From positions 778 to 64,777 of the forward strand of contig JBJMGU010000120.1 in the NCBI GenBank assembly GCA_045807765.1: a DNA stretch of 64,000 nt, in the 5' to 3' direction. This document shows positions 1,045 to 50,649 of the stretch, piece by piece (the first letter of the stretch is position 1; each line of letters opens with the position of its first letter). The stretch is from Blastocatellia bacterium (GTDB lineage Bacteria; Acidobacteriota; Blastocatellia; UBA7656). The translations under genes were made by a program, and so were the position numbers. The notes beneath the pieces are model-generated. The model did not search any database. It worked only from the letters and a program-made list of their open reading frames with translations, and was not told where the DNA came from.

Positions 1045-2262
1045 ATGAATAAAGACGAATTGATTTATGATTGGAACGTTGTCGGACGCAAGGAGGCCGC
1101 AGCGCGCCGCGTCGAGCTGAATGACGAATCGTTGCGCGATGGCTTGCAGTCGCCTTCAGTGATTGACCCGCCCATCGAGCAGAAGATCAACCTGCTCCAC
1201 CTGATGGATTCGCTCGGCATTCATAGCGCAGACATCGGGCTGCCGGGCGCCGGGCCGCGCGCCGTCGCCGACGTGACGCGGCTCGCTGAAGAGATCGTCG
1301 CCTGTAAGCTCGACATCCAGCCGAACTGTGCCGCTCGCACAGTGCTTGCCGACATCATTCCCATTGTCGAAATCTCGCAGAAGGTCGGCATCCCCATCGA
1401 AGCCTGCACCTTCATCGGCTCAAGCCCGATTCGCCAATACGCCGAAGGCTGGTCGCTTGAGATGATGCTGACGGCGACCGAAGAGGCGGTGAAGTTTGCA
1501 ACCTCGCACGGGCTGCCGGTGATGTACGTGACCGAAGACACGACGCGGGCGCATCCCGACACCGTGCGCGCGCTCTATCGCACAGCCATCGAAGCGGGAG
1601 CGCGGCGCATCTGCGTCTGCGATACCGTCGGCCACGCCACGCCCGAAGGCGTGCGCGCCTTGATCGCCTACGTCAAAGAGATCGTTCGCGAGGTCGGGCC
1701 GGACTTCGAGATCAAGATAGACTGGCATGGCCACCAGGATCGCGGCCTCGGCGTCATCAACACGCTTGCCGCGTTTGAAGCGGGCGCCGACCGCTTGCAT
1801 GGCACAGCGCTCGGCATTGGCGAGCGCGTCGGCAATACGCCAATGGATCAATTGCTGGTCAACCTCAAGCTGATGGGCTACATCGATAACGACCTGACGA
1901 ACCTGACACGCTACTGCGAAGCGGCGAGCGCGGCCACAGGCGTGCCGATCCCTGTCAGCTACCCTGTCGTGGGCCGCGACGCGTTCCGCACGGCGACGGG
2001 TGTGCATGCGGCAGCGGTCATCAAAGCATTTCGCAAAGGCGACGACTGGCTTGCCGATGCCGTCTATTCGGGCGTGCCGGCGCGCGCCTTTGGTCGCGAG
2101 CAGGAGATTGAAATCGGCCCAATGAGCGGCAAATCGAATGTCATCTTCTGGCTCGAACGCCACGGCATCGAGCCGACCGCAGAGCGCGTCGAGCGTCTCT
2201 TTGGTCGCGCCAAACTGAGTGCCTCGGTGCTAACCACCGACGAAATTATGCAGAGCATCTGA
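1045..2262 (+). CDS. 2-isopropylmalate synthase / homocitrate synthase family (HMGL-like aldolase domain) protein
   Basis: N-terminal LNDESLRDGLQSP motif, later DTVGHATP and HGHQDRGLGVINTLAAFEAGA, typical of the LeuA/NifV/HMGL TIM-barrel. No long LeuA regulatory domain. Confidence 0.75.
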   Translation: MNKDELIYDWNVVGRKEAAARRVELNDESLRDGLQSPSVIDPPIEQKINLLHLMDSLGIHSADIGLPGAGPRAVADVTRLAEEIVACKLDIQPNCAARTVLADIIPIVEISQKVGIPIEACTFIGSSPIRQYAEGWSLEMMLTATEEAVKFATSHGLPVMYVTEDTTRAHPDTVRALYRTAIEAGARRICVCDTVGHATPEGVRALIAYVKEIVREVGPDFEIKIDWHGHQDRGLGVINTLAAFEAGADRLHGTALGIGERVGNTPMDQLLVNLKLMGYIDNDLTNLTRYCEAASAATGVPIPVSYPVVGRDAFRTATGVHAAAVIKAFRKGDDWLADAVYSGVPARAFGREQEIEIGPMSGKSNVIFWLERHGIEPTAERVERLFGRAKLSASVLTTDEIMQSI

Positions 2263-2411
2263 TTGCGGATTGCGGATTTAAGAGAGCGCGCCATTAACAA
2301 CGGACTACAGGTTGATTGGATTCTAATAGACCATCGTGAAAAATTTCATCAAGAGCGACACCCCCGAATCAACGGCGCGGGTTCCAGAATCCGCAACCCG
2401 CAATCCGCAAT
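2262..2411. repeat. Inverted arms made of tandem heptamers (ATTGCGG)n separated by about 110 nt
   Basis: Left arm ATTGCGGATTGCGGATT (2262-2278). Right arm AATCCGCAACCCGCAATCCGCAAT (2388-2411), which is the reverse complement with three units. Confidence 0.7.
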
Positions 2412-3601
2412 CGCGGGCTCTGCTCTACGCGCCGCAGGTGCGCCGCGCCTTCGCTTTCATCGAAGCCAGCGACAGCGAAACCCACGACGAGATGATGCGC
2501 ATCTGCGAAATTCCGGCACCGCCATTCAAAGAGCATGCCCGCGCCGCTTATCTCAAGCGCCGCTTTGAAGAGATCGGCCTCAAGCATGTGCGCACAGACG
2601 CCGAAGGCAATGTGATCGCCGAGCGACCGGGCCGCAGCGCCGCGCCTGCCATCGTCATCGCCGCGCACCTTGATACGGTCTTCCCCGAAGGCACAGACGT
2701 GCGCGTGCGCCGCGACGGCTCACGCTACTACGCGCCCGGCATCAGCGATAACACCTCAGGCGTTGTCAGCTTGATCGCGCTGGCGCGAGCGCTCGAAGCG
2801 GCACAGGTCGCCACCACCGGCACGATCCATTTCGTCGGCACTGTCGGTGAAGAAGGCGAAGGCAACCTGCGCGGCGTGCGTCACCTGTTCACGGCGGGCG
2901 ACTTTCGTGCCGATGTTGAAGCCTTCATCTCGATTGATGGGCCGGGGGTCGAGCGCATCACGACGCGGGCGCTCGGCTCGCGTCGCTATCGCGTGACGGT
3001 CACAGGGCCGGGCGGCCATTCGTGGGGCGACTTCGGCATCGTCAACCCGGTGCATGCGCTGGGCCGCGCGATTGCCCGCTTTGCCGCCTACCCGGCGCCG
3101 ATGGCGCCGCGCACCTCGTTCAACGTCGGCATCATCGAAGGCGGCAACTCGGTCAATTCGATTCCGCAGCGCGCCAGCATGATCGTTGACATGCGCTCGG
3201 TGTCGAGCGAAGAGATCGATAAGCTGGAAGTTTATTTGCGGCGCGTCGTCGAGCTAGGCTTGCGCGAAGAGAATGCGCAGCGGGCGATGAGCGGCACGAT
3301 GCTGGCCGTCGAGCTTGAGCAGATTGGCGACCGGCCTTCGGGCGAAACGCCGGTGAGCGCGCCCATCGTCCAGGCGGCGATTGACTGCTCGCGCGCCTTA
3401 GGCATCGAGCCGCGCCTCGACTGTTCTTCGACCGACTCGAACATCCCCATCTCGATGGGCCTGCCGGCCATCACGGTCGGCGCCGGCGGCCTGTCAAGCA
3501 ACTGCCACACACTCGGCGAATGGTATGAGCCGACGGGCCGCGAGCTTGGCTTAAAGCGACTGCTGCTGCTCACTGTCATGCTCGCCGGGCTGGTGAATTA
3601 A
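2336..3601 (+). CDS. M20-family metallopeptidase (peptidase T / ArgE-DapE-like)
   Basis: IAAHLDTVFPEG, PGISDNTSGVV and GTVGEEGEGNLRGVRHL motifs. The start (GTG 2336) is uncertain because it lies inside the repeat-flanked spacer. Confidence 0.8.
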   Translation: MKNFIKSDTPESTARVPESATRNPQSRALLYAPQVRRAFAFIEASDSETHDEMMRICEIPAPPFKEHARAAYLKRRFEEIGLKHVRTDAEGNVIAERPGRSAAPAIVIAAHLDTVFPEGTDVRVRRDGSRYYAPGISDNTSGVVSLIALARALEAAQVATTGTIHFVGTVGEEGEGNLRGVRHLFTAGDFRADVEAFISIDGPGVERITTRALGSRRYRVTVTGPGGHSWGDFGIVNPVHALGRAIARFAAYPAPMAPRTSFNVGIIEGGNSVNSIPQRASMIVDMRSVSSEEIDKLEVYLRRVVELGLREENAQRAMSGTMLAVELEQIGDRPSGETPVSAPIVQAAIDCSRALGIEPRLDCSSTDSNIPISMGLPAITVGAGGLSSNCHTLGEWYEPTGRELGLKRLLLLTVMLAGLVN

Positions 3602-44431: not shown

Positions 44432-44986
44432 CTACGCCGTTTTATCGGCGCGGGCACTTTCCAGGAAGAGGTACTTTCTCCACTCCGGCCTTGATGTCGA
44501 CTCATGGCAGAGGATCGAACGGTCAATACCGTAAGTCAACGCCGCCGGGTTCTTCAGCAGCGGCATGCGCGACTCTTCCGGCGTGCGGTCGCCTTTTCGC
44601 TGATTGCACGCAAAGCATGAAGCCACCAGGTTATCGGCAGATGTCGAGCCGCCGCGAGACGCCGGCAGGATGTGATCGATAGTCAACTCGAACATGCCGC
44701 CGCGCTTGCCGCAGTACTGGCAGCAGAAATGGTCGCGCGCCAGAATCCGCGCGCGCTTGCTTGATGATTTGCGCTGCCTGCCGCGCACGTCGATGTATTC
44801 GATCAAACGAATGACTGACGGCTGCGGAAATTCAAAGCGCAGTGAGCGTAGCATGCGGTCGCCGTCTGCCTCGACCATCTCGGCTGACTCCTTCCAGATC
44901 AGACGCACCGCTCGCGGCACAGCAATCGTCCCCAGCGGTTCGTACGAAGCGTTCAACAGCAATACTTTTCGCGTCAGCAGATTCAT
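44432..44986 (-). CDS. HNH endonuclease (McrA/COG1403-like)
   Basis: CQYCGKRGG...LTIDHILPASRGGSTSADNLVASCFACNQRKGDR (HNH with two CxxC pairs). The ATG lies 7 nt after the encoded CCA of the last array tRNA. Confidence 0.85.
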   Translation of the reverse strand: MNLLTRKVLLLNASYEPLGTIAVPRAVRLIWKESAEMVEADGDRMLRSLRFEFPQPSVIRLIEYIDVRGRQRKSSSKRARILARDHFCCQYCGKRGGMFELTIDHILPASRGGSTSADNLVASCFACNQRKGDRTPEESRMPLLKNPAALTYGIDRSILCHESTSRPEWRKYLFLESARADKTA

Positions 44987-44993
44987 AACGTCC

Positions 44994-45070
44994 TGGAGCC
45001 GATGGAGAGAATTGAACTCACACTCTGCGACTTACGAGGCCGCCGCTTTATCCGTTTAAGCTACATCGGC
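44994..45070 (-). tRNA. tRNA-Thr(CGU), CCA encoded
   Basis: Hand fold: acceptor GCCGATG/CATCGGC, anticodon loop CTCGTAA, T-loop TTCAATT, 3' TCCA. Confidence 0.8.
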
Positions 45071-45073
45071 AAA

Positions 45074-45147
45074 TGCCCGATGGAGGAATCGAACCCCCGC
45101 ATGGCCACTTTGTAAGAGTGGTGCTTTCCCGTCTTAGCTAATCGGGC
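45074..45147 (-). tRNA. tRNA-Val(UAC)
   Basis: Acceptor GCCCGAT/ATCGGGC, anticodon loop CTTACAA, T arm GGGGG-TTCGATT-CCTCC. Confidence 0.8.
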
Positions 45148-45152
45148 AAAAG

Positions 45153-45225
45153 AGCGAGCGACGGGATTCGAACCCGCTCGGTCCAGCTTGGAAGGCTGGC
45201 GCTCATCCACTTGAGCTTCACTCGC
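45153..45225 (-). tRNA. tRNA-Gly(UCC)
   Basis: Acceptor GCGAGTG/CGCTCGC, U73, anticodon loop CTTCCAA, T-loop TTCGAAT. Position 8 is A. Confidence 0.8.
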
Positions 45226-45228
45226 CTG

Positions 45229-45301
45229 AGCCGATGACGGGCCTCGAACCCGCAGCCTGGGCATTACAAGTGCCCTGCACGTCCGCTTGTGCTTCATCGG
45301 C
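45229..45301 (-). tRNA. tRNA-Thr(UGU)
   Basis: Acceptor GCCGATG/CATCGGC (identical to Thr-CGU and Ile-GAU), anticodon loop CTTGTAA. Position 8 is A. Confidence 0.8.
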
Positions 45302-45304
45302 GAA

Positions 45305-45378
45305 TGGGGATAGGAAGAGTCGAACTCCCGGCCTCACCTTTCGGAGAGGTGCGCTCTCTCCGTCTGAGCTATATCCCC
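45305..45378 (-). tRNA. tRNA-Arg(CCG)
   Basis: Acceptor GGGGATA/TATCCCC, anticodon stem CACCT/AGGTG, loop CTCCGAA, T-loop TTCGACT. Confidence 0.8.
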
Positions 45379-45383
45379 GGAAC

Positions 45384-45455
45384 TTAGAATTGCAGCGGGC
45401 ACTTCAAGCAATACCGCTTGCCGTGCGCCTTACAGACTTTCTTATAACGATGCAT
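45384..45455 (-). CDS. 23-aa basic Cys/His microprotein embedded in the tRNA array
   Basis: MHRYKKVCKAHGKRYCLKCPLQF* (not in track). GGAGG at 45465-45469 lies 9 nt upstream of the ATG. It fills the only long (93-nt) spacer, between tRNA-Gln(UUG) and tRNA-Arg(CCG). Confidence 0.5.
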   Translation of the reverse strand: MHRYKKVCKAHGKRYCLKCPLQF

Positions 45456-45471
45456 GGCGATCTACCTCCGA

Positions 45472-45545
45472 CTGCGGGGGCGGGCAACGATTCCGCAACC
45501 TCCACTTTCAAAGAGTGGCGCTCTGCCTGCTTGAGCTACCCCGCA
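45472..45545 (-). tRNA. tRNA-Gln(UUG), irregular T arm
   Basis: Acceptor TGCGGGG/CCCCGCA (U1-A72) with G73, as in bacterial tRNA-Gln. Anticodon loop CTTTGAA. The T arm GCGGA-ATCGTTG-CCCGC lacks the canonical TTCGA loop and the G53-C61 pair. Confidence 0.65.
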
Positions 45546-45549
45546 TCAG

Positions 45550-45622
45550 TGGTTGGGGTGAGGGTCGAACTCACCGCCTCTGGTGCTTCAAACCAGCGCT
45601 CTTCCTGATGAGCTTCCCAACC
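45550..45622 (-). tRNA. tRNA-Phe(GAA)
   Basis: Acceptor GGTTGGG/CCCAACC, anticodon loop TTGAAGC (G37), T arm GTGAG-TTCGACC-CTCAC. Position 8 is A. Confidence 0.75.
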
Positions 45623-45626
45623 ATAA

Positions 45627-45699
45627 AGCTGCCGGCGAGACTCGAACTGGCGCGGATAGGTTCAGGAAACCTGCGCCTCATCCGCTCGGCCACGGCAGC
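45627..45699 (-). tRNA. tRNA-Arg(CCU)
   Basis: Acceptor GCTGCCG/CGGCAGC, anticodon loop TTCCTGA. D arm TGGCCGAGCGGATGAGGC resembles class II D arms. One T-stem mismatch. Confidence 0.7.
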
Positions 45700-45706
45700 A
45701 AAAAAA

Positions 45707-45784
45707 TGGTGGAGAGTATGGGGCTCGAACCCATCCATCGAGTTTGCAGGACTCGCATGCCGCCAACAACACCTTGCCGACCGA
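45707..45784 (-). pseudogene. Degenerate/chimeric tRNA-like unit (Ala-UGC-like 3' half with CCA)
   Basis: Canonical 3' part: T arm ATGGG-TTCGAGC-CCCAT, then ACTCTCC-A-CCA. Anticodon arm CGAGT-CCTGCAA-ACTCG. The 5' end (GGTCGGCAAGGTG...) cannot pair with the 3' acceptor strand. Confidence 0.5.
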
Positions 45785-45857
45785 TGGGCCGCGTGGGAGT
45801 CGAACCCACTACCACCCGATTAAAAGTCGGGTACTCATCCTGATGAGCTTGCGGCCC
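45785..45857 (-). tRNA. tRNA-Lys(UUU)
   Basis: Acceptor GGGCCGC/GCGGCCC, anticodon stem CCCGA/TCGGG, loop CTTTTAA, T arm GTGGG-TTCGACT-CCCAC. Position 8 is A. Confidence 0.8.
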
Positions 45858-45858
45858 G

Positions 45859-45949
45859 TACTCCCGCCGGGACTCGAACCCGGATCACGCACCAATCTAG
45901 TGCTTGCAGGGTATAAGCCTGCTGTTTTATCCAATTAAACTACGGGAGC
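45859..45949 (-). tRNA. Class II (long variable arm) tRNA with anticodon UAU
   Basis: Acceptor GCTCCCG/CGGGAGT, A73. Anticodon stem GCAGG/CCTGC with loop CTTATAC. 22-nt variable arm AAGCACTAGATTGGTGCGTGAT (stem GCAC/GTGC). T arm CCGGG-TTCGAGT-CCCGG. Confidence 0.7.
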
Positions 45950-45953
45950 GCGA

Positions 45954-46025
45954 TGAGCCCGACAGGAATCGAACCTGCTTTTCCGGTTTAAGAGACCGGC
46001 ACTTCGCCAGCAAAGCTTCAGGCCC
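45954..46025 (-). tRNA. tRNA-Lys(CUU)
   Basis: Acceptor GGGCCTG/CGGGCTC (two G-U pairs), anticodon stem CCGGT/ACCGG, loop CTCTTAA. Position 8 is A. Confidence 0.75.
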
Positions 46026-46028
46026 AAA

Positions 46029-46103
46029 TGCTCCCGGCAGGACTCGAACCCGCATCGCCAACCTTAGAAGGGTTGTGCCTTAATCCAGTTAGACCACAGG
46101 AGC
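46029..46103 (-). tRNA. tRNA-Arg(UCU)
   Basis: Acceptor GCTCCTG/CGGGAGC, anticodon stem CAACC/GGTTG, loop CTTCTAA, T-loop TTCGAGT. Confidence 0.8.
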
Positions 46104-46108
46104 AAAAG

Positions 46109-46182
46109 CGAGGTGTAGGGGAGTCGAACCCCTCTCTTCACGATAGACAATCGTGCGCCTCAAGCCGCTCGGCCAACACCTC
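46109..46182 (-). tRNA. tRNA-Asp(GUC)
   Basis: Acceptor GAGGTGT/ACACCTC, G73, anticodon stem CACGA/TCGTG, loop TTGTCTA (pyrimidine at 37). D arm TGGCCGAGCGGCTTGAGGC. Confidence 0.7.
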
Positions 46183-46186
46183 GAAA

Positions 46187-46259
46187 TGCCGATGTCAGGA
46201 TTCGAACCTGCATCGCGCGGTTATCAACCGCGTGCTCTGCCTGCTTGAGCTACATCGGC
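46187..46259 (-). tRNA. tRNA-Ile(GAU)
   Basis: Acceptor GCCGATG/CATCGGC, anticodon stem CGCGG/CCGCG, loop TTGATAA. D arm GCTCAAGCAGGCAGAGC is identical to that of Gln(UUG). Confidence 0.75.
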
Positions 46260-46260
46260 A

Positions 46261-46337
46261 TGGCTCCGGGACAAGGATTTGAACCTTGAATCTCCTGAGT
46301 CAGAGTCAGGCGCGATAGCCAGTTTCGCCCTCCCGGA
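46261..46337 (-). tRNA. tRNA-Gln(CUG), CCA encoded
   Basis: Acceptor TCCGGGA/TCCCGGA (U1-A72), G73-CCA, anticodon loop CTCTGAC, T arm CAAGG-TTCAAAT-CCTTG. Position 8 is G. Confidence 0.75.
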
Positions 46338-46342
46338 ACACG

Positions 46343-46417
46343 TACGGGCGGTTGGAGTCGAACCAACGATCTCCTGATCCACAATCAGGCGCTCTTGACC
46401 ATCTGAGCTACGCCCGC
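46343..46417 (-). tRNA. tRNA-His(GUG), without encoded G-1:C73
   Basis: Acceptor GCGGGCG/CGCCCGT, anticodon loop TTGTGGA, T arm GTTGG-TTCGACT-CCAAC. Position 73 is A and the base 5' of G1 is U. Confidence 0.75.
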
Positions 46418-46422
46418 ACAAG

Positions 46423-46495
46423 CAGGGATGGCGAGACTCGAACTCGCTAAAACTGGTTTGAAAAACCAGGCGCTCGGCCCTTTGCATTCATCCCC
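46423..46495 (-). tRNA. tRNA-Glu(UUC)
   Basis: Acceptor GGGGATG/CATCCCT, G73, anticodon stem CTGGT/ACCAG, loop TTTTCAA. The D loop contains AGGGCC as in Glu tRNAs. Position 8 is A. Confidence 0.75.
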
Positions 46496-46515
46496 ATTAA
46501 AGCCAAAGATCACCA

Positions 46516-46589
46516 TGCGCGAGGGGAGAGTCGAACTCCCAAGACTTCGGGTTTAAGCCGAAGATGTCTGCCGCTTGCATCACTCGCGC
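46516..46589 (-). tRNA. tRNA with Leu anticodon UAA but class I (short variable loop) architecture
   Basis: Acceptor GCGCGAG/CTCGCGC, A73, anticodon stem TTCGG/CCGAA, loop CTTAAAC, 5-nt variable loop. D arm TGATGCAAGCGGCAGACATC. Confidence 0.7.
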
Positions 46590-46594
46590 AAGAT

Positions 46595-46670
46595 TGGTGG
46601 CAGGGCCGGAGTCGCACCGGTGATTTCCTGGTTATGAGCCAGGCGAGCCTGATTCCTGCTCCACCCCTGC
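46595..46670 (-). tRNA. tRNA-Met(CAU)-like, CCA encoded, irregular T arm/acceptor register
   Basis: D arm GAGC/GCTC, anticodon stem CCTGG/CCAGG, loop CTCATAA. T-loop TGCGACT (G at 55). The acceptor pairs only as GCAGGG/CCCTGC, consistent with a 1-nt loss. Confidence 0.55.
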
Positions 46671-46675
46671 ATCAG

Positions 46676-46748
46676 AGCGCGCGGTCAGACTCGAACTGAC
46701 ACGTTAGCGGTTTTGCAGACCGCCGCCTTCCCTTTTGGCTACGCGCGC
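46676..46748 (-). tRNA. tRNA-Cys(GCA)
   Basis: Acceptor GCGCGCG/CGCGCGC, U73, anticodon stem GCGGT/ACCGC, loop CTGCAAA, T arm GTCAG-TTCGAGT-CTGAC. Confidence 0.8.
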
Positions 46749-46754
46749 GAAAAG

Positions 46755-46825
46755 AGCTTCGTATGGGACTCGAACCCATGTCTGCGACCTGGCAAGCCGC
46801 CGTCTTTCCTCTGGACCAACGAAGC
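46755..46825 (-). tRNA. tRNA-Gly(GCC)
   Basis: Acceptor GCTTCGT/ACGAAGC, U73, anticodon loop TTGCCAG, T arm ATGGG-TTCGAGT-CCCAT. Confidence 0.8.
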
Positions 46826-46829
46826 CGTA

Positions 46830-46903
46830 TGGGAGCAAAGAGATTCGAACTCTTATGACCGGCATTTTGAGCGCCGGATGTCTACCACTTGCATCATGCT
46901 CCC
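46830..46903 (-). tRNA. tRNA with Leu anticodon CAA, class I architecture
   Basis: Acceptor GGGAGCA/TGCTCCC, A73, anticodon loop CTCAAAA, 5-nt variable loop. D arm TGATGCAAGTGGTAGACATC. Confidence 0.7.
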
Positions 46904-46907
46904 GCAG

Positions 46908-46981
46908 TGCGGACGGAGAGATTCGAACTCTCAAAACGTCGCCTCTGAAACGACGATGTCTGCCGCTTGCATCACGTCCGC
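46908..46981 (-). tRNA. tRNA with Leu anticodon CAG, class I architecture
   Basis: Acceptor GCGGACG/CGTCCGC, A73, anticodon loop TTCAGAG, 5-nt variable loop. D arm TGATGCAAGCGGCAGACATC. Confidence 0.7.
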
Positions 46982-47077
46982 AGCAGTGTGGGCGACCGGA
47001 GTCGAACCCACAACGGATTGGTTACCGCTACTTGTTTTCAAGACAAGCTGACATTCCAGCATCTACTCTTCCACGAA
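46982..47077 (-). pseudogene. Degenerate class II tRNA-Ser(UGA)-like unit
   Basis: Good anticodon arm CTTGT-CTTGAAA-ACAAG and variable arm AGCGG/CCGTT. The T region reads GTGGG-TTCGACT-CCGGTCG-CCCAC (7 extra nt). The 5' GGAAGAG has no complementary 3' strand. Confidence 0.45.
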
Positions 47078-47161
47078 CGGAGATGAGAGGAGTCGAACCT
47101 CCACGGGATATTTCACCCGGCGGCTTAGCAAACCGCTGCCATACCTTTAGGCGACATCTCC
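47078..47161 (-). tRNA. tRNA-Ser(GCU), class II
   Basis: Acceptor GGAGATG/CATCTCC, G73, anticodon loop TTGCTAA, long variable arm CGGGTGAAATATCCCGT, T arm GGAGG-TTCGACT-CCTCT. Confidence 0.8.
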
Positions 47162-47167
47162 ACAAGG

Positions 47168-47237
47168 CAGGAGTGACAGGAATCGAACCTGTTCTGCTGG
47201 TTTTGGAGACCAGTTGGCTGCCTTAGCTCTCACTCCC
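47168..47237 (-). tRNA. tRNA-Trp(CCA), irregular D region
   Basis: Acceptor GGGAGTG/CACTCCT (G1-U72), G73, anticodon stem CTGGT/ACCAG, loop CTCCAAA, T arm ACAGG-TTCGATT-CCTGT. The D stem is only 3 bp (GCT/AGC) with extra linker nucleotides. Confidence 0.65.
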
Positions 47238-47242
47238 AAGCA

Positions 47243-47328
47243 TGCCGGCGGGAGGACTCGAACCTCCGAAGTCCACAAAGGGACGCCTGTTCTACAGACA
47301 GGAGCGATTGCCGCTACGCGACGCCGGC
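47243..47328 (-). tRNA. tRNA-Tyr(GUA), class II (first gene of array)
   Basis: Acceptor GCCGGCG/CGCCGGC, A73, anticodon stem CCTGT/ACAGG, loop CTGTAGA, long variable arm with GTCC/GGAC stem, T arm GGAGG-TTCGAGT-CCTCC. Confidence 0.8.
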
Positions 47329-48954: not shown

Positions 48955-50649
48955 TCAAATATCAAAGCCGCCGAGGCGTCCGCCGCTCTTGGGCTGCGGC
49001 TTGACCAGCACGGCGCGCTCCTCGTCGCGGCGTGCGCGGCTCTGCTCGCTGTGCCAGCGCGCCCACTCCAGCGGCGCATCGATGGTTTCGCCGCCGTGGC
49101 GCGTCAGCCGCTTGCGCACCTGACACATCACCGGCGTATTGATCGCCACGCCTGACACGATCAACTGCCCCTTGGTCAGCGCCGGCAATTCATCAAGCAT
49201 GCGTCGGCCTGCGCCTTCGACCGTTTTAGCAATGGTGTCCTGATCTATTGGGTTGACGATGCGCATGATGAACTGCGTCATGCATTGCGACAGCACATCG
49301 GCGTCGAGCTTGCCCGGTCGCTGAGTAATCAGGCCGACGCCGACGCCGAATTTGCGCCCTTCGGAAAGAATCTGCTTTAACACATTCGTAGACACGACCG
49401 TTTGTCCGGCGGGCGCGAAGCGGTGCGCTTCTTCGAGCAGAACGAACATCGGGAACGGCAGGTATCGCTCGTTGGTTGGGTCGGTGACTTCGCCCTTATG
49501 CGTCGCCATGCGGCCCAGGATCGCCCGCCGCAAAAGCGTCGCGACGATTACCTGCTGCTCGTTCTGCTCGATGTCTACGAGTTGCAGCACGGTACATTGA
49601 CCGGGCTGAAACAGCTCGGTGAGCAGGTTATGTTCGTGGTCGGAAAAAATCTGATGCTTGCTGTAGCCGCGAAAGCGCCCTTCGAGCCGCCACGTCAGCC
49701 CGTCAATCGTGCTGATGTTGCCGGCGCGGTTGCCTTCGTCGTCGCCATAACGCTGCTCTTCGACGGCGTCGAGCAAGTCCTGATAGATGTAGTGGCCGTG
49801 CTTGCCGGCGCGCTCGCGCATGGTGCGAAAGGCGTTGCCGAGAAAGTGGCGCATCTTGTCGGTCATCTCCGGCAGCAGGTAGCAGATGTCGGCGAACTCC
49901 AAGGTGTCGAATCTGACTTTCACCTTTTCGGGCCGCAGAATCTTAACCTCCGGCGTATAGCCGTCGGCGGTGAATTGAGTGCGAAACTTTTCGCCTTTGA
50001 TCTCCTGTAACGTATCATACTCGCCGTGCGGGTCAACGATCAGCACCGCCGAGCGGTTCTGTGGGCGCATCAGCTCTTCGATCAGCACAGACGCCGTGTA
50101 GCTTTTGCCCGCGCCGGTCGAAGCCAGCACCGCCAGATGTGTCGATACGACATCCTTCACAGACAGGACCACCGGGACGTCGCCGGCTTCGCGGGTCAGC
50201 AGACTGCCGACGTGCGCCGCGCCACGCTCGCCCGGCTGCTTCGGCGACAACACGCGCGCCAACAATTCAGAGGGCGCAAGGTAGACAGGTTGGCCGGGCA
50301 TTGGCGGGATGCGCGGGTTGACGAAGTCTTTCAGCTCGTCGTCATAGTAACCAATCAACGAGACAACGATCTCGAACAGCTCGGCGCTGTCGTCGTCAAA
50401 GCCGATCATCGCGGCGACCGCCGCCGGCGGCGTTTCGGGATCGGCAAGAAAGCTGTCCGGCAGCGAGCGCGCCAGCCGTCGCTCGGTGACATTGCCAAGA
50501 ATGCGGCGCTCGCTGCGGGCCGCATCGCGCACGTAGTAGACGAACTCGCCGACGCGCGTGTGGTCGTTGTCTGTGGTGATGAAGACAAACTCGCTGGGCT
50601 TTTCGCCCGGCCCCTTGACTGTGCCTACCAGTGTGTCGGACATTTCCAT
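48955..50649 (-). CDS. HerA-like (DUF87) hexameric ATPase/helicase
   Basis: N-terminal HAS-barrel-like GTVKG...EFVFITTDNDHTRVGEFVYYV. Walker A VLASTGAGKSYT. Walker B MFVLLEEAHRFAP. Confidence 0.75.
   Translation of the reverse strand: MEMSDTLVGTVKGPGEKPSEFVFITTDNDHTRVGEFVYYVRDAARSERRILGNVTERRLARSLPDSFLADPETPPAAVAAMIGFDDDSAELFEIVVSLIGYYDDELKDFVNPRIPPMPGQPVYLAPSELLARVLSPKQPGERGAAHVGSLLTREAGDVPVVLSVKDVVSTHLAVLASTGAGKSYTASVLIEELMRPQNRSAVLIVDPHGEYDTLQEIKGEKFRTQFTADGYTPEVKILRPEKVKVRFDTLEFADICYLLPEMTDKMRHFLGNAFRTMRERAGKHGHYIYQDLLDAVEEQRYGDDEGNRAGNISTIDGLTWRLEGRFRGYSKHQIFSDHEHNLLTELFQPGQCTVLQLVDIEQNEQQVIVATLLRRAILGRMATHKGEVTDPTNERYLPFPMFVLLEEAHRFAPAGQTVVSTNVLKQILSEGRKFGVGVGLITQRPGKLDADVLSQCMTQFIMRIVNPIDQDTIAKTVEGAGRRMLDELPALTKGQLIVSGVAINTPVMCQVRKRLTRHGGETIDAPLEWARWHSEQSRARRDEERAVLVKPQPKSGGRLGGFDI

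Follow-up and report, generated by a model that had tools for sequence, protein, structure and literature searches.

Putative leucine tRNAs without a long variable arm in a mobile, phage-type tRNA array of a Blastocatellia bacterium

A 64,000-nucleotide (nt) stretch of contig JBJMGU010000120.1 from a Blastocatellia bacterium (assembly GCA_045807765.1; the whole stretch is hereafter the window) contains a dense array of transfer RNA (tRNA) genes, among which the three with leucine anticodons (UAA, CAA and CAG; hereafter the trio) lack the long variable arm of class II tRNAs. Judging from covariation among their homologues, these genes are under selection and not decaying, and we consider it highly probable that they are real, selected tRNAs of leucine type residing in a mobile array; if so, analogy with characterized systems makes it likely that they are leucylated by the host enzyme. 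The best reading of their sequences is that they represent functional leucine isoacceptors, which would read UUA/UUG, UUG and CUG, respectively, and that their ancestors were class II tRNA-Leu molecules from which the variable arm was lost. In textbooks and in the main review of tRNA identity, every non-mitochondrial tRNA-Leu is taken to have the long arm, and an initial annotation of this DNA, made from the letters alone, similarly regarded short-armed Leu tRNAs as essentially a mitochondrial feature, a view that is now out of date (PMC6614811, PMC6582537).

Each gene of the trio comprises 74 nt counted from position 1 to 73 (Table 1), and the Rfam tRNA model places the three exactly where they had been annotated (43.9, 43.6 and 40.2 bits for UAA, CAA and CAG; gathering score 29), with ARAGORN calling minus-strand tRNA-Leu genes at 46515-46590, 46830-46903 and 46907-46981. 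In all three, the acceptor stem pairs at 7 of 7 and the T stem at 5 of 5 positions, the anticodon loop has 7 nt with U33 (CTTAAAC, CTCAAAA and TTCAGAG), the discriminator is A73, and positions 44–48 hold 5 nt with no class II arm. The tertiary core is also present (that is, a 3-bp D stem, U8, A14, A15:U48, G18G19 at the spacing typical of Leu, A20a and U54/A58, with U48 and TTCGAMT T loops). This anatomy agrees with the 5-nt variable loops, A73, near-identical D arm and good stems of the initial annotation, as do the ARAGORN calls and the sequence with its statement that the class II scaffolds of the array carry Tyr, Ser and UAU anticodons. Its suggestion that the trio might be charged with another amino acid finds no evidence, given that G3:U70, a long arm and G-1 are all absent and the anticodon register is unambiguous. 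Apart from the long arm, every sequence feature by which bacterial tRNA-Leu is recognized was found in the trio.

The D region (positions 8–26) of the trio reads TGATGCAAG(C/T)GG(C/T)AGACATC and is identical at 18–20 of 20 positions, with whole molecules identical at 47–56 of 74. Although the D arm had been described as unusual, it matches the D arms of E. coli and other housekeeping Leu tRNAs in length, in its 3-bp stem and in its loop residues, the shared architecture being U8 G9 / NNG / N A14 A15 N N G18 G19 N A G A C. When the trio was aligned to the canonical-Leu model, GUG..G.AA..GG.AGAC matched column for column, and the D-stem bases differed from canonical Leu by compensatory changes. 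By this sequence comparison, the arm is a normal tRNA-Leu D arm. The D-loop motif AA-N(1-3)-GG-N-A-N-AC was found in 25 of 35 Leu versus 0 of 187 non-Leu tRNAs in a first set, and in 28 of 61 versus 2 of 427 in an independent set. Intermediates between class II and short-armed Leu tRNAs exist in related arrays: a phage contig (L110) encodes long-armed Leu CAG and GAG with a near-identical D arm (TGATGGAATTGGAAGACAT) directly beside a short-armed Leu UAA that bears the D arm of the window, and another locus (L139) encodes short-armed Leu GAG and CAG with a canonical D arm (GTGGTGGAATTGGCAGACAC).

Isotype was assessed with a covariance model (R1) built from the five Leu isoacceptors of E. coli K-12 and three housekeeping-type class II Leu tRNAs. 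Among the 28 members of the array, R1 ranked the trio first to third (UAA, 55.1 bits; CAG, 53.1; CAA, 52.2), in support of the initial proposal that they are Leu decoders, followed by the long-armed Tyr (51.3), the UAU tRNA (47.8), Cys (45.5) and Ser-GCU (44.2). Cys being the best of the other short-armed tRNAs, the margin over that group is 6.7–9.6 bits. The best non-Leu score among the tRNAs listed in five control loci (approximately 60 non-Leu genes) was 49.5 bits; a Pseudomonas megaplasmid, Tsukamurella loci and phage Rctr197k, in which no Leu tRNAs were found, served as negative controls. In five other arrays, the 14 best matches all had Leu anticodons, and three Leu genes of the trn operon of the cyanobacterium Anabaena (Nostoc) sp. 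PCC 7120 scored 56–59 bits. The general Rfam tRNA model placed the trio 20th, 21st and 24th among 27 tRNA-model matches.

The evidence for selection comes from an alignment of 18 family members from 12 sources, scored on the cloverleaf (21 pairs). Stem cells were paired in 97.9% of cases, and both sides had changed in 17 of the 21 pairs, a number reached in 0 of 500 shuffles. The covariation score was 0.86 as against 0.23 ± 0.02 in shuffles, and sliding the partners by 1–3 columns lowered pairing to 37–47% and the score to 0.13–0.17. Invariant positions were U8, G9, A14, A15, G18, G19, the AGAC run, A35 and A73, with U48 retained in at least 90%. The initial annotation had favoured selection over decay, and the covariation bears this out: the hallmarks of tRNA pseudogenes (that is, broken stems, loss of core bases and lack of compensatory evolution) are absent from the trio. 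Decay does occur in the array but not in the Leu genes, given that its tRNA-Ala(UGC) has lost the 5' acceptor strand and the orthologue in a Blastocatellia metagenome-assembled genome (MAG; L100) is intact. The decayed copy is 92.6% identical to that orthologue (L100 6454-6521) and retains both anticodon arm and T arm as well as CCA and seven consecutive Ts.

Relatives of the trio were sought by scanning for the D-arm string, and only matches inside a tRNA were used; such matches occurred at 3 of the 111 loci from genomes and viruses and at 9 of the 40 from metagenomes, the others being chance matches, mostly in coding DNA. Among the loci of the one scan of genome contigs, none had the three-copy pattern of the window, and look-ups of two window proteins for exact matches returned nothing. 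At all 12 loci (L078, L100, L110, L113, L119, L120, L130, L131, L137, L139, L142 and L143), the string lies in short-armed tRNAs with Leu anticodons (UAA, CAA, CAG or AAG) within a tRNA array, and the stems vary. The sources are the Blastocatellia MAG L100, whose syntenic array comprises 25 tRNAs, an Obscuribacteraceae MAG (L078), the phage contig L110, which encodes a large terminase subunit and several HNH genes, and nine metagenome contigs, of which L143 is the most closely related (79.5% identity over 516 nt). Synteny extends to L100, L142, L143 and the viral contig L152 (IMGVR_UViG_3300005617_000340), such that syntenic arrays are found in a Blastocatellia MAG, in contigs of soil metagenomes and in predicted viral contigs, as is characteristic of horizontal spread. 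As the flanks of the array in L100 are unrelated to those in the window, the array appears to move. The HNH endonuclease encoded beside the array is 67% identical to that of L152, which occupies the equivalent site directly after Val-UAC and Thr-CGU, and 39% identical to the one beside the array of L110. Taken together, these comparisons identify the array as a horizontally mobile, phage-type element that travels with an HNH homing-type endonuclease. A blastn search of the whole array against annotated phages and plasmids returned single-tRNA matches only.

Whether arm loss is particular to leucine can be asked of phage arrays more widely. The E. coli leucyl-tRNA synthetase (LeuRS) relies on A73, A14, A15:U48, G18G19, A20a and the D/T corner, makes no use of the anticodon or the long arm, and charges armless minimal tRNA-Leu variants (PMC9976931). 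Given that LeuRS ignores the arm and seryl-tRNA synthetase (SerRS) needs it, the arm is predicted to be expendable for Leu and not for Ser, and we tested this prediction in 80 viral loci picked by HNH homology alone, 20 of which had at least 8 tRNAs (unique sequences counted). In the 20 arrays, Leu tRNAs were short-armed in 34 cases and long-armed in 27, Ser tRNAs in 0 and 27, and Tyr tRNAs in 2 and 9, one of the two short-armed 'Tyr' calls having the anticodon AUA. At least one short-armed Leu tRNA was present in 13 of the 17 Leu-bearing arrays, and A73 was found in 61 of 61 survey Leu tRNAs as in 18 of 18 homologues of the trio. Most of the short-armed survey Leu tRNAs represent a second type, the D stem of which has the ordinary 4 bp (TAGCCCAA..GG.AG.GGC), and the type of the window, in which the Leu D loop is kept, is a minority (6 of 34). 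The contrast between Leu and Ser can be viewed as a natural experiment that agrees with known synthetase recognition, and we regard it as a modest new point: we found no paper reporting that Leu tRNAs of phage arrays have commonly lost the arm and Ser tRNAs have not. On this small survey (34 of 61 Leu, 0 of 27 Ser), mobile and phage tRNA arrays routinely contain Leu tRNAs with a short arm, and, with the Streptomyces, mycobacterial cluster and Anabaena operon examples discussed below, this indicates that the rarity of such tRNAs had been overstated. Isotype-aware annotation should thus not mark such genes as anomalies or pseudogenes, and the arrays are a ready source of natural armless LeuRS substrates.

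Assuming that the trio functions as we propose, the array would be transcribed as a single minus-strand precursor and cleaved into individual tRNAs, to which CCA would have to be added post-transcriptionally because it is not encoded. The host LeuRS would then charge the trio through A73, A14, A15:U48, the placement of G18G19 and A20a, and the corner of the D and T loops. Loss of the arm would be tolerated in tRNA-Leu because E. coli LeuRS does not use the arm as an identity element, and the Ser tRNAs would retain theirs because SerRS needs it. After the stress-induced Anabaena operon, we infer that the array may provide a supplementary or back-up set of tRNAs.

Several observations weigh against this reading. 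The R1 margin is modest (0.9–3.8 bits over Tyr and 2.7–5.6 bits over the best control non-Leu tRNA) and is partly due to the Leu anticodon itself, R1 being a Leu-only model. A sequence-only hidden Markov model of eight canonical Leu bodies gave the trio 12.8–16.9 bits versus up to 19.9 bits for other array tRNAs, and the trio likewise failed to stand out when D arms were scored against those of canonical Leu tRNAs by a crude local alignment; the stem bases differ by compensatory changes, and the structure-aware R1 was the model that set the trio apart. A15:U48 is not diagnostic in this array, being found in several of its non-Leu tRNAs as well, position 37 of Leu(CAG) is A37 and not the G37 (m1G) of its E. 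coli counterpart, and the sole promoter-like site, a sigma-70-like one at 47670-47642, is not above chance. With respect to charging, E. coli LeuRS is unable to charge the type I (that is, short-armed) tRNA-Leu(CAA) of Streptomyces coelicolor, the charging of which relied on features of the Streptomyces LeuRS (PMC6614811), and in Aquifex the LeuRS responds to how the variable arm is oriented (abstract of PMC2377443). Given this rejection of the Streptomyces tRNA and the arm sensitivity of the Aquifex enzyme, leucylation by the LeuRS of this particular host, the gene for which (leuS) lies outside the window, is not guaranteed.

Such reservations lead to the alternatives. Pseudogenes that have drifted as relics since deletion of the arm could be expected to score as the trio does under the general Rfam model (40–44 bits, among the lowest of the array), and there are decayed genes both in this array (for example, Ala-UGC) and in the Anabaena operon, where 3 of 26 genes are pseudogenes (PMC8421152). 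However, the perfect stems (7/7 and 5/5 pairs), the compensatory change in 17 of 21 pairs across the family, the retention of fold and D loop in paralogues that differ at 18–27 of 74 positions, and the persistence of the architecture in Acidobacteriota, Cyanobacteria, Melainabacteria-type MAGs and phages render this explanation extremely improbable. It is also very unlikely that the three are made without serving as leucine donors (that is, that they remain uncharged, are mischarged, or act as decoys or regulators). A35 and A73 are invariant and anticodon changes stay within the leucine box among the 18 homologues, the trio and most homologues have U33 in an anticodon loop of 7 nt, the signature of tRNAs that decode, the identity elements of another synthetase are absent from the trio, and the homologous Anabaena set is aminoacylated and found on polysomes (PMC8421152). 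What speaks for a role outside leucine donation is the rejection of a bacterial type I tRNA-Leu by E. coli LeuRS (PMC6614811), the precedent of irregular acidobacterial tRNAs, some of which are charged and yet unused in translation (PMC5389517), the presence of further irregular tRNAs in the array (six with A8, the aberrant Ser-UGA and the class II UAU tRNA) and the A37 of Leu(CAG). The allo-tRNAs and irregular acidobacterial polycistrons of that study (PMC5389517) were considered as a frame for the trio and rejected on account of its canonical 7/5 acceptor and T stems.

An adaptive origin of arm loss deserves separate consideration, although we consider it unlikely. Under this hypothesis, the Leu tRNAs would be charged yet invisible to arm-dependent toxins, defence nucleases or modification enzymes, and the array would constitute a toxin-resistant back-up tRNA set or anti-defence cargo, in which case A8 in six tRNAs and the long-armed UAU tRNA would be part of the same strategy. 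The phage relatives and HNH gene of the array fit this idea, as does the frequent absence of the arm from Leu tRNAs of phage arrays; moreover, a role as anti-defence cargo has been proposed for tRNA arrays (PMC12803027), phage tRNAs evade anticodon nucleases through sequence change (PMC10264068), MenT3 acts preferentially on tRNA-Ser (PMC11541572), induction of the Anabaena operon accompanies that of tRNA-cleaving toxins (PMC8421152), and human SLFN11 targets type II tRNAs (as cited in PMC13056530). However, no bacterial nuclease or toxin specific for the tRNA-Leu arm is known, and bacterial Schlafen proteins were rejected as candidates for such an arm-specific nuclease, as the one that has been characterized cleaves Lys, Met, Ala and other tRNAs and not class II tRNAs (PMC13056530). 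The arm is still present in 27 of the 61 array Leu tRNAs, and Ser tRNAs of the same arrays retain it, which relaxed constraint explains equally well.

The setting of the trio corresponds to a known class of element. The array spans 2,335 bp in a single orientation with spacers of mainly 1–6 nt (approximately 11 tRNA genes per kb), and its 26–28 genes compare with at least 20 tRNA genes, at least 2 per kb and one orientation in the definition of L-arrays or tRNA array units (PMC4758250, PMC8421152). The HNH gene starts 8 nt past the last tRNA, as is typical of array-linked HNH or homing endonucleases. Density, orientation and HNH gene together are the signature of these elements (PMC4758250, PMC8421152, PMC6582537, PMC12803027). 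G+C content is 0.55–0.57 in two 2-kb bins over the array versus 0.61–0.62 in neighbouring bins, and the flanking genes (including a TonB-type OMP_b-brl_4 receptor with a CarboxypepD_reg domain, NamZ and a BadF-type kinase) look chromosomal and acidobacterial in character. Upstream of the array, a 65-nt non-coding stretch conserved with L143 may be a shared leader, promoter or regulatory element. A HerA-family ATPase (48955-50649, minus strand; Pfam DUF87; PADLOC HerA, 2.7e-44) is encoded on the strand of the array, 1.6 kb upstream of it, and no known defence-system partner gene was recognized in the genes adjoining it.

Table 1 Coordinates of the tRNA array and associated features in the window
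Feature	Position	Strand	Details
Whole tRNA array	44994-47328	-	26 ARAGORN genes and 2 tRNA-like units
HNH endonuclease gene	44432-44986	-	184 amino acids (aa), Pfam HNH_5 1.1e-15
Class I tRNA-Leu(UAA)	46516-46589	-	74 nt, variable loop GTCTT, A73, CCA not encoded
Class I tRNA-Leu(CAA)	46830-46903	-	74 nt, variable loop GTCAT, A73, CCA not encoded
Class I tRNA-Leu(CAG)	46908-46981	-	74 nt, variable loop GTTTT, A73, CCA not encoded
Long-armed UAU tRNA	45859-45949	-	A73, ordinary 4-bp D stem
Decayed tRNA-Ala(UGC)	45707-45778	-	Rfam 21.3 bits at 45710-45778, below gathering score
tRNA-Glu(UUC)-like gene	46423-46495	-	Rfam 42 bits; missed by ARAGORN
Aberrant tRNA-Ser(UGA)	46986-47074	-	5/7 acceptor pairs, 4/5 T pairs
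tRNA-Trp	47166-47237		A8
tRNA-Lys(CUU)	45952-46026		A8
tRNA-Lys(UUU)	45785-45857		A8
tRNA-Phe	45549-45622		A8
tRNA-Thr(UGU)	45228-45301		A8
tRNA-Gly(UCC)	45152-45225		A8
Stretch upstream of array, conserved with L143	47418-47482	-	blastn 82% over 67 nt, L143 1700-1765

Several other members of the array are irregular (Table 1). Its long-armed tRNAs are Tyr GUA (86 nt), Ser GCU (86 nt), Ser UGA (89 nt) and the UAU tRNA (91–92 nt). Orthologues of the latter (L100 5516-5605, L142 2272-2361 and L143 144-234) have kept the stem of the variable arm (GCAC/GTGC), and their acceptor and T stems have changed in a compensatory manner, which argues that this tRNA is under selection; a Mukai-type allo-tRNA was ruled out by its 7/5 stems. 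The tRNA-Ser(UGA) has no match to the Rfam tRNA model, its best match being tRNA-Sec at 30 bits, under the threshold of that family, and it may be decaying or non-canonical. The Glu(UUC)-like gene has an odd D region and a G1:U72 pair. In six tRNAs, A8 replaces the near-universal U8, and given that the L100 orthologues of Lys-UUU and Phe share it, A8 appears to be conserved. Most other tRNAs of the array bear the discriminator base usual for their isotype, which indicates that identity elements are kept across the array.

Related arrays yielded further observations. L152 contains a 190-aa open reading frame within its array (2070-2642, plus strand), which matches a family of phage proteins (phrog_19918, 3.9e-36) and also weakly matches an RF-1-domain peptide chain release factor family (phrog_3122, 1.1e-06). 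In L143, a canonical long-armed tRNA-Leu(CAG) with encoded CCA (2070-2155, plus strand) lies on the opposite strand approximately 500 nt from the array start, possibly a host gene beside the insertion site of the array. Three homologues of the trio have C33 instead of U33: L131 5103-5180 (CCCAAAC), L137 395-472 (CCCAAAA) and L130 9054-9130 (TCCAGAG).

Of the known systems, the closest is the trn operon of Anabaena/Nostoc sp. PCC 7120 (the best-studied L-array, on plasmid pCC7120delta), which was examined as an independent check and the four Leu-anticodon genes of which are all short-armed, as are those of the trio. Its Leu UAA has a D arm of the same family (TGATGCAATTGGCAGACATG), a 5-nt variable loop, U48 and A73; the gene order Thr-UGU/Gly-UCC/Val-UAC is common to both arrays; and its HNH protein, all8564, is 32% identical to that of the window, although it is encoded upstream of the array and that of the window downstream. 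The Anabaena operon is plasmid-borne in a cyanobacterium, whereas the window array appears to be chromosomal in a probable acidobacterium, and the isoacceptors differ (UAA, UAG, GAG and CAA versus UAA, CAA and CAG). Under translational stress, 23 of the 26 Anabaena tRNAs are expressed and aminoacylated in vivo, those tested are on polysomes, and 3 of the 26 genes are pseudogenes (PMC8421152). With four Leu genes and only three pseudogenes in the operon, at least one short-armed Leu tRNA must be charged. Expression and charging are thus demonstrated for the Anabaena operon, whereas the window array is known from its sequence. We found no paper stating that the Leu tRNAs of this operon are armless, and the consulted parts of PMC8421152 and PMC10272220 do not mention the missing arm; the operon would be a tractable system for studying both the charging of armless tRNA-Leu and the cause of arm loss.

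The type I tRNA-Leu(CAA) of S. coelicolor, which is leucylated by the single LeuRS and could not be deleted, combines a 5-nt variable loop with a Leu anticodon, as does the trio, and coexists with class II Leu tRNAs (PMC6614811). In that system the length of the variable loop counts and not its sequence, and charging depends on the leucine-specific domain of LeuRS and does not use A73 (PMC6614811); the gene is a single essential housekeeping gene, in contrast to the trio in its mobile array. In Mycobacterium mucogenicum/phocaicum, a cluster-encoded tRNA-Leu(UAG) has a short variable loop and the chromosomal isoacceptor a long arm (PMC6582537), and mycobacterial tRNA array units share horizontal acquisition, an HNH endonuclease and a tRNA-Ile(UAU) (PMC6582537, PMC5966550, PMC12803027). 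The host there is an actinobacterium, and the case concerns one Leu isoacceptor described in one sentence, with identity elements and selection not analysed (PMC6582537). Animal mitochondrial tRNA-Leu and engineered armless E. coli tRNA-Leu are likewise leucylated without a long arm through A73, A14 and the D/T corner (PMC9976931), but the former have a dedicated LeuRS and degenerate cores and the latter are laboratory constructs, whereas the trio is natural, canonical in its other arms and of bacterial or phage origin. In summary, the trio belongs with the already known type I bacterial tRNA-Leu, and the array that carries it with an already known class of element.

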